DNA of 64,000 bases from Eledone cirrhosa (lineage: Eukaryota), in contig CAXHJY010000491.1 of assembly GCA_964016885.1 (NCBI GenBank), positions 62,001-126,000 on the forward strand. The letters are read 5' to 3'. Below the pieces are notes generated by a model. It searched no databases. It was not told the DNA's origin and was given only the letters and a program-made list of their open reading frames with translations. The position numbers were made by a program, and so were the translations under genes. This document shows, one piece after another, positions 22,737 through 48,640 of this stretch (within the stretch, counting starts at the first letter, position 1; the number at the start of each line of letters is the position of its first letter).

Positions 22737-22804
22737 TATATATATATATATATATATATATATATATATATATATATATATATATATATATATATATATA
22801 TATA
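22737..22804. repeat. (TA)n microsatellite abutting a hammerhead-bearing cassette
   Basis: Pure TA run. Confidence 0.98.
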
Positions 22805-23542
22805 GAAGTGGATGGATACCTCAACAGGTACAATGTACTTGTAGAAATATTCAAGTTGTTTATAATACATGTGGTTCAATGGCACTAATTCGAGATACCA
22901 GAACAATATAAAAGTAGCGAAACAAACGGTTATTAAACAATTTTCCAAATAAATTAAAAAATGATTAAATAATCACCTGTTCAGATGCTGTTACCGACGG
23001 TTTCATCATTCCGAAAGATTGGAAATCCAACGAATTTCCAATGGAAAGAAATGAATCTTCAGACAGCCCTATTTCCACGCTATAAGGTATAGCAAGTAAA
23101 TATTATGCTCCCTGCCCAACGCATGCGGTCAAGCCGTTAAAGTGACACACACGCAAATCAGGTCGCTGATAAAAGCTGGATATTATAAACATGTCGAATT
23201 GCCACTAAAATTAGCAGCATTATTCAACGTTTTGTTCTCTACATAAGGTGAATAAATTATAGAAGTGGATGGATACCTCAACAGGTACAATGTACTTGTA
23301 GAAATTGGAAAATTGTTTAATAACCGTTTGTTTCGCTACTTTTATATTGTTCTGGTATCTCGAATTAGTGCCATTGAACCACATGTATTATAAACAACTT
23401 GAATATTTCTACAAGTTACATTGTACCTGTTGAGGTATCCATCCACTTCTATAATTTATTCTCCTTATGTAGAGAACAAAACGTTGAATAATGCTGCTAA
23501 TTTTAGTGGCAATTCGACATGTTTATAATATCCAGCTTTTAT
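22805..23542 (-). mobile_element. Non-coding PLE pLTR / retrozyme-like cassette: 457-bp unit with a terminal direct repeat plus an inverted partial copy
   Basis: GAAGTGGATGGATACC...GTAGAAAT occurs at 22805 and 23262; 23305-23542 is the reverse complement of 22802-22949 continuing into 23169-23260; contains a hammerhead. Confidence 0.8.
22987..23067 (-). ncRNA. Type I hammerhead ribozyme motif
   Basis: Minus strand reads GCTGT CTGAAGA [TTCATTTC..ATTGGAAAT/ATTTCCAAT..GGAATGAT] GAAA CCGTCGG TA ACAGC; stem I GCTGT/ACAGC, GUA cleavage triplet. Confidence 0.85.
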
Positions 23543-23868
23543 GTAGATATGATACAACAAATAAAATCGTAATTGACAATATACACAGAAATTGAACGAA
23601 GACTGTGTTACACTCTCTTATGTAATCAGTAACGTAAGCCATGATACATTAAAAAAAGACGATATTATATATAAACTGAATTAGGGGAAAATTAGTGACG
23701 GAAATATATGAATGTTTAAGCGATCGCTAACCGAAAGAGTTGACATTTGAAAATTTTAATGAAATGAATCTTGAAATAAGCAACAAAACTATTTATATTT
23801 CAATCAAGAATAACGAAATTTAGTAAATAAATTGTGTAATATTCATTCATTATTTATTCATTATTTAT

Positions 23869-23943
23869 CGGGGTCGATAAAAATAAAGTACCAGTAATGC
23901 ACTGGGTAATTTGCTGGCCTTGTGCCTAAAGTAGAAACAATTA
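23869..23943 (+). mobile_element. 5'-truncated SINE (3' tail GGGGTCGATAAAATAAAGTACCAG...GCCTTGTGCCTAAAGTAGAAACAATT)
   Basis: Same tail in five places in the window; flanked on both sides by ATTATTTAT (possible TSD). Confidence 0.8.
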
Positions 23944-24484
23944 TTTATTCAATGTAATCCAACTTATTTTACAAACGGGATAAAATAATATATTCTGGAA
24001 GCATTCCCACACTCTTTACTTTATTATAGTCTAGATGTTCCCTTAAAATCTGGTTGTTTGTAGAGACTGAAACTACTTGCAATACACATTTCATAATTCC
24101 ACTCGTGTTGCCTCGTCTACCAGACTCTACCCATACTGGAATGACGTTTTGTGATTGTGTATATATTTTTAAAAGTTTTTTATGATACTTTTGTTTATTT
24201 ACTACTTTAACTATAATTTATACACTTAATTGAGAGGTCAGATACAGGAGTTCAGATTACTGTCTAACAGATAATTTCCTCTGGGGTTAGGATATGCCTG
24301 TAGGAAACGCAATCTTCGGCCGCCAAGATGCATGGTAAATTTTCGAGACTTATTTTGGCGGGTAAATATCGGTAAACACGGTAATTAAAATATGTGGCTA
24401 AGAAAGTACTAATTATACAAACGGGACTAAACGTTTAGGGTATTCATCGACGGTTAGTCATTGTCTATAACTATTACATCAAGT

Positions 24485-24623
24485 TGCGGCCCTTGCCATT
24501 CTGAGTTCAAATCCCACCAAGGTTAATTTTGCCTTTCATCCTTACGCTTACGGGGTCGATAAAATAAAGTACCAGTAATGCACTGGGATAATTACTGGCC
24601 TTGTGCCAAAAGTAGAAACAGTT
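24485..24623 (+). mobile_element. tRNA-derived SINE copy (octopus-type family)
   Basis: B-box GAGTTCAAATCCC followed by the TTTGCCTTTCATCC...GGGGTCGATAAAATAAAGTACCAG tail. Confidence 0.8.
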
Positions 24624-24790
24624 ATCTATATTTCTCTCCGTGGACAAGTTAAATTTTATTGCTGATAAGACAATGACATCTGAAACCCATCAAGTAAATC
24701 CATATTTTTCTCTCCATTGAAATAAGGTATTTCTTTACAACTTTCAAAATACAGAGATGAGCAGGTATGCAACAGTTTGCCTTGCGCAAC

Positions 24791-24815
24791 TACGAGGGTC
24801 GGCTGTAAAGTTCAT
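24791..24815 (+). mobile_element. Possible mariner-type terminal inverted repeat remnant
   Basis: TACGAGGGTCGGCTGTAAAGTTC resembles the TA+CGAGGG...AAAGT start of mariner TIRs; no partner TIR or transposase seen. Confidence 0.3.
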
Positions 24816-25146
24816 TGGCTAGTAATGAAGGACTGATGCTAGGGCTGTGAAATCTTGCATGCATTAATTTCAACCCGTTTTATTAATAACTACAGTGGTT
24901 CTTTCCGGGATCTATGTCGAAAAATAAACCTCATTTGGTCATTCGATGGGAGTATCTTCGTCAGCTTATGAACGTTTCAGCTGACCCTCATATAACTGTG
25001 ATTGACATTGGACAGATATTTAGTGCATATATATATATATATATATATATATATATATATATATATTATATATATATATATATATATATATATATATATA
25101 TATATATATATATATATATATATATATATATATATATATATATATG

Positions 25147-25715
25147 GGGAGGAGGTATAGTTCACTTGAAGCATTGTGTAATGAGGTATAAACGTTAGAA
25201 TATGTGTAATAAGGCCAAGACAATGCAGATATGGACATAGAAAAAAGAATGCAATAGTGAAAGATATTGATGTGAATTCGTCTTTCACCTTGAATTTATT
25301 TAAATGTCCTTAATTTTCGAGATAATATCTCTTCTTCGGAGGGAAGTAAAGGTCTCAGACCAGCGTCTTTAAATCTCTAATGAAGCCATGTAGGAATTTT
25401 GATGTTATCTTTAAATTTGTAGAGGGGAAAGATTCTGAAGTTGGGATGATTTTGGGCGGCACAGGTATCAATGTGTTCACTCAGTGGTATTTTCCTGTAT
25501 TCCCGTATTTTAATTTGGGATCTATGGACAGTCATGCGTTGGCGGAGGCTGTTTTTGGTCTGGCCTATGTATTTTTCTGAGCAAGTTAATACATATATTA
25601 GATTTTCCGATGCACATGTGAAATTGTGTTTTACTATAAAACGTTGTCCTTCTTTGAAATAGAATTCCGAACCCTCTATTAGGTTGATGCAAATTTTACC
25701 AGGAAAAAAATACTG
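25147..25715 (-). mobile_element. 3' fragment of a Penelope-like element (family 1) whose 3' end abuts (TA)n at 25028-25146
   Basis: GIY-YIG remnant, then a degenerate hammerhead-like motif at 25307-25344 (CCGAAGA AGAGAT-ATT-ATCTC GAAA ATT A AGG), then a tail ending at the TA tract. Confidence 0.75.
25377..25715 (-). pseudogene. PLE GIY-YIG endonuclease remnant
   Basis: FTCASENLIYVLTC-SEKYIGQTKNSLRQRMTVHRSQI...PLSEH matches the PLE endonuclease pattern C.S.N.IY...C...YIGQT...L..R...H. Confidence 0.85.
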
Positions 25716-25719
25716 GTCC

Positions 25720-47120: not shown

Positions 47121-47250
47121 TCATTTCTGAAGACAGCATATATATGTGAAGGTATGTATATTTCCTCTGATAGTTTGTAATATTTTTACATAGATCTATA
47201 TGATATACATACCAACACACATATACATCCTAGAAACGATCGTAAAACGA
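47121..47250 (+). ncRNA. Type I hammerhead motif with extended stem II
   Basis: TCATTT CTGAAGA CAGCATATATATGTG..GGTATGTATAT..ATATACATACC..CACATATACATCCTA GAAA CGATCG TA AAACGA (one stem I mismatch). Confidence 0.8.
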
Positions 47251-47321
47251 TGAATTTGTTCATATAAGGAACTAGTTCTTTGTTTTAATTTCATTGTTTT
47301 ATATATATATATATATATATT

Positions 47322-47662
47322 GGTCAATCAATGATAAACACTGATTGCTAAATAAATTAACTATGGAGATATAAAATATACAGAAGCGAAAACCAACCAA
47401 ACAGTGAGTGTGTTCTGGCAATATTGTTACAACAATATGGGCGGGGATTGGAAGTATCAGTAGAAGGTCGGACGCCATGCTTTGCAGCATAGAGTTACAC
47501 CCCTTTATGGTGTGAGTTAAAATCCCGCCGAGATTCACTTTGTCTTTCATCCTTACGGGGTCGATAAAATAAAGTACCATTAATTTACTGGGGCAATTGC
47601 TGGCCTTGTGCCAATAGTAGACACAATTATTACAACAATATGACCCTCCCCAAGTATAACAA
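47322..47662 (+). mobile_element. Diverged 3' tail of PLE family 2, interrupted by a SINE
   Basis: Ends TGACCCTCCCCAAGTATAACAA-(TA)n, compared with TGACCCTCCCAAAGCATAACAA-(TA)n at 34257-34278. Confidence 0.6.
47440..47629 (+). mobile_element. Near full-length SINE with a 13-bp target-site duplication
   Basis: TTACAACAATATG at 47427-47439 and 47630-47642; body homologous to 32804-32987. Confidence 0.88.
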
Positions 47663-47836
47663 TATATATATATATATATATATATATATATATATATATA
47701 TATATGCAAAAGTTCTATTTAAAGTTGTTGGGATACAACAAGTAAATATTTTTATAACTTATATAAAGCACTCGACGAATTTTTGGAGTAGATATACGAT
47801 ATTAATAAATGGAAACTATATTTATAAAACCATATT

Positions 47837-47901
47837 TATTTCATTATACATATTTCAGGGATACCACATTAAATTATGGTATGCCTTCATCAGACAAAAT
47901 A
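47837..47901 (-). ncRNA. Type I hammerhead ribozyme motif
   Basis: TATTTTGT CTGATGA AGG C ATACCA..TGGTAT C CCT GAAA TATGTA TA ATGAAATA. Confidence 0.88.
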
Positions 47902-48080
47902 CAATATATAACAGTTTTACAAATAGGTTTGACGTACCCTTTTAAAATACAACCATTACTTTTGGAATACTTTTAAAATTACTTTTAAAATACAACCATT
48001 ACTATCCAGACAGCCTCCAAAAGTAATGGTTGTATTTTAAAAGGGTACGTCAAACCTATTTGTAAAACTGTTATATATTG

Positions 48081-48145
48081 TATTTTGTCTTATGAAGGCA
48101 TACCATAATTTAATGTGGTATCCCTGAAATATGTATAATGAAATA
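48081..48145 (+). ncRNA. Hammerhead copy with core mutation CTTATGA (G5 to U), likely inactive
   Basis: Reverse complement of 47837-47901 except for the core base. Confidence 0.75.
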
Positions 48146-48224
48146 AATATGGTTTTATAAATATAGTTTCCATTTATTAATATCGTATATATATATATAT
48201 ATATATATATATATATATATATAT

Positions 48225-48565
48225 GCAGAGGTTATATTTAATTTGTTGGGATTCAACAAGCTTAAACATTTTTATAACTGATATAAAGCACTCAACAGTT
48301 AGTGGAGTAAATATACAATATATTAACAAATGGAAACTATATTTATAAACCCATATTTATTATATAAAACCATATCCAGGAAGCTCCAACCGTTAAGGTT
48401 GTCTTTTTTCAGGGTATGTCAATATTTAATTACAAAACTAATCTGTATTGTATTTTATCTGGTGAAAGCGCACCATAATCTGCCGTGGTGGCCCTTGAAA
48501 TATGTATAATAAAATAAATCTGGTTTTATAAATATAGTTTCCATTTGTTAATATATTGTGTGTAT
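48225..48565. mobile_element. Third cassette of the same family (minus-strand tail 48225-48360, plus-strand body 48373-48560) with hammerhead variant CTGGTGA at 48451-48516
   Basis: TATTTTAT CTGGTGA AAG C GCACCA..TGGTGGC C CTT GAAA TATGTA TA ATAAAATA; flanked by (TA)n. Confidence 0.8.
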
Positions 48566-48640
48566 ATATATATATATATATATATATATATATATATATA
48601 TATATATATATATATATATATATATATATATATATATATA

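Follow-up and report, generated by a model that had tools for sequence, protein, structure and literature searches.

Penelope-like elements (PLEs) that encode an endonuclease (EN), among them Penelope/Poseidon, Neptune, Nematis, Naiad and Hydra, are described, in the parts of the literature drawn on here, as carrying an inverted 5'-truncated copy that adjoins the 5' end, with a tail of 30-40 bp often at one end only (PMC8557442). Head-to-head copies have been called their most frequent arrangement, and self-priming has been proposed for it (PMC3846280). The preferred target of Naiad and Hydra is (TA)n, with a linker hypothesis for Neptune; non-autonomous families have been noted, and the origin of the inverted units and the tail is stated to be unresolved (PMC8557442). 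With a PLE protein in vitro both target strands were nicked and extended, two start sites bounded the tail and a dimer was predicted (PMC11167929). Here we describe a 64,000-nucleotide (nt) stretch of Eledone cirrhosa DNA (contig CAXHJY010000491.1, positions 62,001 to 126,000; the whole stretch is called the window) in which self-comparison identified 14 two-armed head-to-head units that are almost certainly PLE-type insertions. Their architecture is the known PLE footprint, of which the window is a clear example; a longer tail, a stem shared between families and a tendency of the tail towards one arm are modest additions from one window.

The window is animal-type DNA with a G+C content of 36.7%, in which a 29-bp satellite (1-21925) and a 64-bp satellite (50766-64000) enclose a 29-kb repeat-rich island. 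Between 21930 and 50760 there were 59 inverted matches against none in each of 20 shuffles, and inverted arms were present at all eight places named in a preliminary description of this DNA. That description recognised the pattern and counted about eight insertions, but five units were overlooked (C4c, C44, C5b, C5c and C9 in Table 1) and its single cassette at 34327-37066 is in fact two, C4a and C4b, with a TA tract between them. Its unit at 46941-47300 is indeed an inverted palindrome, but one that holds neither an open reading frame (ORF) nor a hammerhead motif, and the left end reaches to about 46804, where it adjoins (TG)n. Microsatellite alone separates neighbouring units in two chains, one of five units over 27251-37224 and one of nine pieces over 44464-49150. 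The non-coding units belong to at least seven families that show no BLAST similarity to each other. C5b, C7 and C8 form one family, and since their three long arms share one start point these arms are probably full length, without truncation.

Table 1. Positions (in the window), arms and hammerhead-type motifs of the head-to-head units and of a single PLE fragment.
Unit	Positions	Strand	Arms, tail and ends	Hammerhead-type motif (strand)
C1	22805-23542		minus-sense arm long, a partial tandem; plus-sense arm short with tail of 93 nt	hammerhead-like, about 23062 (-)
C2	27251-27579		minus arm short with 94-nt tail; plus arm long	27480 (+)
C3	27790-34277		dead Nematis-like PLE (by linker and CCHH); left arm 27790-30368 minus, right arm 30369-34277 plus	27968 (-), 34087 (+)
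C4a	34326-34631		left arm with 88-nt tail; untailed right arm about 16 nt longer at 5' end	
C4b	34660-37066		left arm long, without tail, takes in spacer 35790-35850; right arm 35852-36977 followed by 89-nt tail	
C4c	37119-37224		tail plus 12-nt palindrome; family of C4a and C4b	
C44	43963-44380		old unit, head to head; ends (CA)n/(TG)n	hammerhead-like, 44196 (-)
C5	44464-46062		left arm with tail of about 100 nt; right arm long	44658 (-), 45970 (+)
C5b	46201-46429		long minus arm; right arm is the last ~52 nt of the tail only	46297 (-)
C5c	46454-46664		arms 60 nt, loop 4 nt, right-hand tail 86 nt	
C6	46804-47299		palindrome 46942-47299 without spacer; left overhang 138 nt, ends near (TG)n; no polarity marker	
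C7	47706-48185		tail of 91 nt on left arm; right arm longer by 13 nt	47893 (-)
C8	48224-48562		left arm short, tail of 91 nt; right arm long; family of C5b and C7	variant core
C9	48641-49150		old unit; left arm short, right arm a partial tandem with 33-nt overhang	
Single 3' fragment, second PLE type	25145-25751	-	GIY-YIG whose CxxC linker is of the long Neptune/Naiad type; (TA)n at 3' end	

The units share with the endonuclease-bearing PLEs, as far as the cited accounts go, an adjacent inverted 5'-truncated copy lying head to head, a tail that is one-sided in most of them, a hammerhead near the 3' end, a (TA)n bias like that of the clades with a CxxC linker, and non-autonomous families (PMC8557442, PMC3846280). 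Unlike in those accounts, up to nine pieces are chained here in one microsatellite cluster. Partial tandems (pseudo-long terminal repeats), also described for PLEs, were seen in C1 and C9 only, and C3 is truncated before any upstream repeat. The preliminary view that the insertion rule goes beyond known PLEs is not supported, because the architecture is described as general for PLE clades, non-autonomous families included (PMC8557442), with head to head as the commonest form (PMC3846280).

The preliminary description had one or both outer ends of each unit fused to (TA)n; 24 of the 28 lie within 3 nt of (TA)n with n of at least 5, and 16 of the 20 TA tracts of at least 20 nt touch a unit, counts that are partly circular as TA tracts helped to set the unit boundaries. 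Of the remaining four ends, three adjoin (CA/TG)n or lie up to 11 nt from it, and the fourth has no repeat. In C1, whose parse is ambiguous, (TA)n is found at the left end only. Any target-site duplication would be hidden within (TA)n.

The outward direction of the 3' ends, with a minus-sense left arm and a plus-sense right arm, is true of every unit that carries a polarity marker. A pattern scan for hammerheads gave ten matches, of which nine lie in units and all nine face outward (Table 1); the tenth, inside the reverse transcriptase (RT) frame, was left out of account. C3, by its RT and GIY-YIG frames, and the fragment at 25377-25751 agree with this polarity. Orientation by ORF or hammerhead, on which the preliminary description relied, is available in six of its eight units, in one of them through the variant core only, and not in the other two; the family at 34.3-37 kb was oriented by its fixed outer ends and by read depth climbing towards them. 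The scan found no hammerhead motif in C4, C5c and C6. A search of the window against Rfam gave no hammerhead and 60 sub-threshold matches, nearly all to microRNA families, and on folding, two of five motifs were clearly better than shuffles (z near -3). The motifs are thus pattern matches and putative ribozymes; in four units they lie 41-52 nt before the inner end.

C3 encodes a PLE-type RT followed by a C-terminal GIY-YIG domain, and its ORF is broken by frameshifts and by a short interspersed nuclear element (SINE). Comparison with sequence P0001 gave 35-51% match across RT and EN; P0001 itself has no Pfam and no PDB match, while its Atlas neighbours carry RVT_1, HTH_animal and GIY-YIG. The GIY-YIG domain of C3 reached a Pfam E value of 0.0018, below the curated cut-off. 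The linker is short, CX4CX2C, and is followed by GIY-YIG with CCHH residues, a spacing that by eye resembles the Nematis rows in Fig. S2 of PMC8557442. C3 would therefore be a dead Nematis-like PLE, sharing RT, linker type and GIY-YIG with CCHH with that clade as partly described there, and differing from it in being frameshifted and SINE-interrupted; the likeness is one of linker spacing and CCHH. A homologue search returned none among 84 candidates at near length and 2 of 383 at longer length, and two DNA patterns had no match in metagenome and viral contigs, where no locus related to alignment A2 was found either.

Both arms of C3 carry the same SINE (29113-29297 and 32809-32991). They differ at 31, 30 and 26 sites by codon position over 565 codons, with 17 silent and 64 replacement changes, and purifying selection between them was rejected on these figures. 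The shared SINE and the neutral divergence together indicate that both arms came from one source that was already dead. By self-comparison six copies or pieces of a SINE-like repeat occur in the window, the two in C3 and those at 23857-23948, 24482-24629, 41398-41461 and 47445-47632. The last lies, with an apparent 13-nt target duplication, within a segment flanked by TA tracts (47320-47661) whose plus-sense 3' end is like that of C3 (1 of 1000 shuffles). For the second PLE type no partner arm of the 25145-25751 fragment was found up to 27178, and an 11-nt match between its 3' end and that of C5 was set aside as likely chance.

The two 3' ends of a unit are usually unequal, which the preliminary description had overlooked. 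In eight units the arms end at two points, one at an inner site on (TA)n and the other 86-102 nt further on (94, 88, 89, 102, 86, 91 and 91 nt, and 93 nt in C1); the overhang is 138 nt in C6 and 33 nt in C9, and the 3' ends are equal in C3 and C44. These tails are longer than the 30-40 bp given for PLEs in the accounts drawn on. The Anolis Poseidon element PAc, as reported in part of PMC11167929, is alike in that two RT start sites bound a tail downstream of the hammerhead, both strands are extended and the target is AT-rich; its tail is shorter than those found here, and the account drawn on does not treat the inverted arm. Just past the inner site, in the sense of the RNA, 2-7 TA-like letters occur where readable, which is weak evidence in AT-rich DNA. 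The motif NCTC lies within 16 nt of the inner site, with a complementary GAGN 8-37 nt further on, in six of seven families, the closing pairs being A-T, T-A and G-C. Only 5 of 20,000 random sets of seven reached six with any trimer allowed, the window sizes of this test having been picked after inspection. The stem is not clean in C6, in the C4a copy or in C3, and MAFFT alignment of it was poor. A CTC/GAG stem common to unrelated families distinguishes these units from the published PLEs, and in the portions of the PLE literature covered here neither this stem nor the tendency of the tail described below was found, although Arkhipova 2006, Evgen'ev and Arkhipova 2005 or figures may show them.

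Measured from the inner site, the lengths of tailed and untailed arms are 145/500, 68/108, 101/118, 1126/1191, 433/1064, 0/178, 170/183 and 51/190 nt, the reverse case is C9 with 357/114, and there are two ties. The tail thus lies on the shorter, more 5'-truncated arm in eight of nine decidable units, while the papers, as far as covered, place it at 'one end' or on 'either side'. The spacer belongs to the longer arm, as had been claimed: independent reads show this for 34660-37066, the ORF for C3, and homology or hammerhead for six others. Tandem duplications were also seen inside units, of about 141 bp twice in C4b (34810-35081, in both arms) and of 60 bp three times in the C5 spacer (45433-45607).

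Both arms of a unit derive from one source. In C7 they are 99.4% identical, against 80-85% to the sister copies over full arms; the young C4 family does not show such a gap. In one family the two inner ends of each unit match (101/118 and 1126/1191 nt), and the spacer measures 0-4 nt in two units, C5c and C6. The arms of C5b have no sequence in common; the tail-only arm (46378-46429) was matched by 0 and 1 of 1000 shuffles, and on the reverse strand by 103 of 1000. At its junction C7 has a local filler of about 36 nt. Eight units have additional 5' sequence on one arm and additional 3' sequence on the other, a layout that plain fold-back copying of one arm from the other cannot produce; the long arm of C1 has an internal tail copy as well. 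A fold-back followed by trimming, in which one cDNA is copied into a hairpin with both arms tailed and the endonuclease trims one of them back to the inner site as that arm is joined to the target, is rather unlikely. It combines the self-priming proposed for head-to-head PLEs (PMC3846280) with the endonuclease resolution suggested for the tail (PMC8557442), in those parts of the two papers drawn on, and explains the 0-4 nt loops, the matched inner ends, the same-source arms and the equal ends of C3. It does not readily produce the C5b arm that consists of tail only, a snap-back would hardly be expected to leave spacers as long as 629 and 1344 nt, and the tail ends are RT start sites in vitro (PMC11167929, in part).

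Inverted duplication of pre-existing single insertions at the DNA level, by replication fold-back or repair, was also considered. TA tracts are fragile sites, which favours such a process, and the arms are same-source and neutrally diverged. Nevertheless it cannot account for 3' sequence private to one arm and 5' sequence private to the other, or for the recurrence of one 90-nt offset and stem in families that are unrelated, and self-comparison revealed no duplicated flanking host DNA. We regard it as very improbable.

Four public runs (X1, X21, X22 and X5) were aligned to 35790-37066. X1 is possibly the window's own sample, X5 carries another organism label, and X21 and X22 are restriction-site-associated DNA (RAD) runs whose depth gives no copy number. 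At 36980 a loose end that runs on into (AT)n was found in 139 contigs of X1, 2414 reads of X21, 2587 reads of X22 and 3 contigs of X5, while read depth carries on through the tail past 36980; both end points are in use at other copies. Depth climbs towards the outer end, as predicted by 5' truncation. The spacer 35790-35850 is joined to the opposite strand at 35854, as seen in 14 contigs and in more than 1700 reads per RAD run, and reads extend it past 35850 into sequence missing from the window, so the spacer is native to the left arm of C4b. Among 15 joints listed of 143, 13 are the native adjacency of spacer and arm. At 36979 and 37029 some reads carry the tail alone, behind unrelated sequence, and in others the tail breaks off half-way and a different sequence follows; a further family may have this tail too, or another element may have struck it. 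A search for runs listed no RNA run, and 16 of its 20 rows had other organism labels with shares of at most 0.25; X5 is the one among these that was aligned.

These reads also bear on whether the units are artefacts of assembly or library, arising from fold-back chimeric reads. The data include no long read across a unit, and no single read or contig spans C4b. On the other hand, the arms differ by 0.6-17% with indels and stop at different fixed sites, and the inner end on (TA)n recurs in independent runs, which makes such an origin scarcely credible.

In the reading we prefer, with a probability of roughly 0.5, one RNA serves both cut ends of a (TA)n tract as template and is primed at two fixed sites separated by about 90 nt. 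A GIY-YIG endonuclease with a CxxC linker would nick both strands. One end would pair with a short UA-rich spot just 5' of the NCTC...GAGN' stem and give the long arm, and the other cut end would prime at the distal site and copy the tail. The long cDNA would then snap back or switch template and be recopied through the inner site onto the tail cDNA, the outcome being a shorter inverted arm that bears the tail. As (TA)n would be left on both sides after each insertion, the tract could be hit again and units would pile into chains. Same-source arms, matched inner ends, tail-only arms and the tail on the short arm are what priming of one RNA at two sites would yield.

A narrower version is tentative. 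In it a programmed twin priming depends on an RNA element of about 90 nt (UA-rich spot, NCTC...GAGN' stem and a second hairpin) that fixes two start roles, the inner start giving the long arm and the outer start capping the short arm; any RNA that bears the element would become a hairpin in (TA)n and renew the target.

Several points weigh against priming of one RNA at two sites. The arm rule has p of about 0.02 by unit and about 0.11 by family, and it was found post hoc in one window with few families. A distal start about 90 nt behind itself favours a shorter reach and so a tail on the short arm. The rule fails in C9, the ends are equal in C3 and in C44, C1 is open to another parse, and the spacer of C5 (44464-46062) was placed by base composition only. 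Junction microhomology is 0-2 nt where readable, tail folding is significant in only three of seven tails, and C3, the sole long coding unit, is without a clean CTC/GAG stem. The insertion itself might have added some of the (TA)n. Priming in vitro required no homology to the cut DNA (PMC11167929, as far as drawn on).

The preliminary description had held that both ends of a cut TA tract act as primers, and this part fits the data as well as the nicking and extension of both strands in vitro (PMC11167929). Its further proposal, that the two ends start separate cDNAs whose truncated ends are then joined, here taken with separate RNAs held by a protein dimer, is unlikely. Extension of both strands and the predicted dimer (PMC11167929, in part) agree with it, as do the equal ends of C3 and C44 and the reversed C9, and the 90-nt offset alone could give the trend of the tail towards the short arm. 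Independent, randomly truncated cDNAs fit less well with same-source arms, two fixed 3' sites and inner ends that are often 0-65 nt apart and matched in several units; the arms in the C7 family are far closer to each other than to sisters (which does not extend to the young C4 family), and a disabling SINE is present in both arms of C3. The junction sequence does not separate priming of one RNA, self-priming with trimming and two separate cDNAs.

In the L1 twin priming of Ostertag and Kazazian 2001, both target ends reportedly prime one RNA, and the product is head to head with its 3' ends outward. The units here share that layout and C5b resembles a twin-primed product, but L1 arms are said to barely overlap and to have a variable inner site, while the arms of the present units form overlapping inverted repeats with a fixed inner site. 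L1-type twin priming was rejected, as the arms overlap in all units except C5b. A MITE (miniature inverted-repeat transposable element) or foldback DNA transposon was rejected as well, since one arm extends about 90 nt beyond the other and the inner ends differ between copies of a family. Animal non-LTR retrozymes, according to part of bioRxiv 10.64898/2026.07.22.740005, are likewise short non-coding PLE passengers with a type I hammerhead; they are defined as tandem arrays with a hammerhead per unit, whereas the units here are inverted pairs. A retrozyme was rejected, no tandem array of at least two units each with a hammerhead being present.

Other features of the island were recorded. Related 75-bp tandem arrays lie one on each side of the cluster (43418-43790 and 49922-50196) with upstream sequence in common. 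Decayed LINE-like (long interspersed nuclear element) coding remnants at 39400-41770, which gave no Pfam match, contain segments that are inverted and duplicated (39979-40071 and 40785-40877; 40073-40231 and 41514-41671). On the minus strand, 26795-27064 is an open stretch of 90 codons with ordinary composition and a GT donor-like site near its end, possibly a host exon, also without a Pfam match.

For annotation, short palindromes between TA tracts of the kind described here could easily be filed as MITEs or microRNA precursors. For the biology of PLEs, counts of tail side and arm length across the genome could separate twin priming from self-priming, and the two end points and one short stem that recur across this dense set of unrelated families offer a concrete cis element for in vitro assay.

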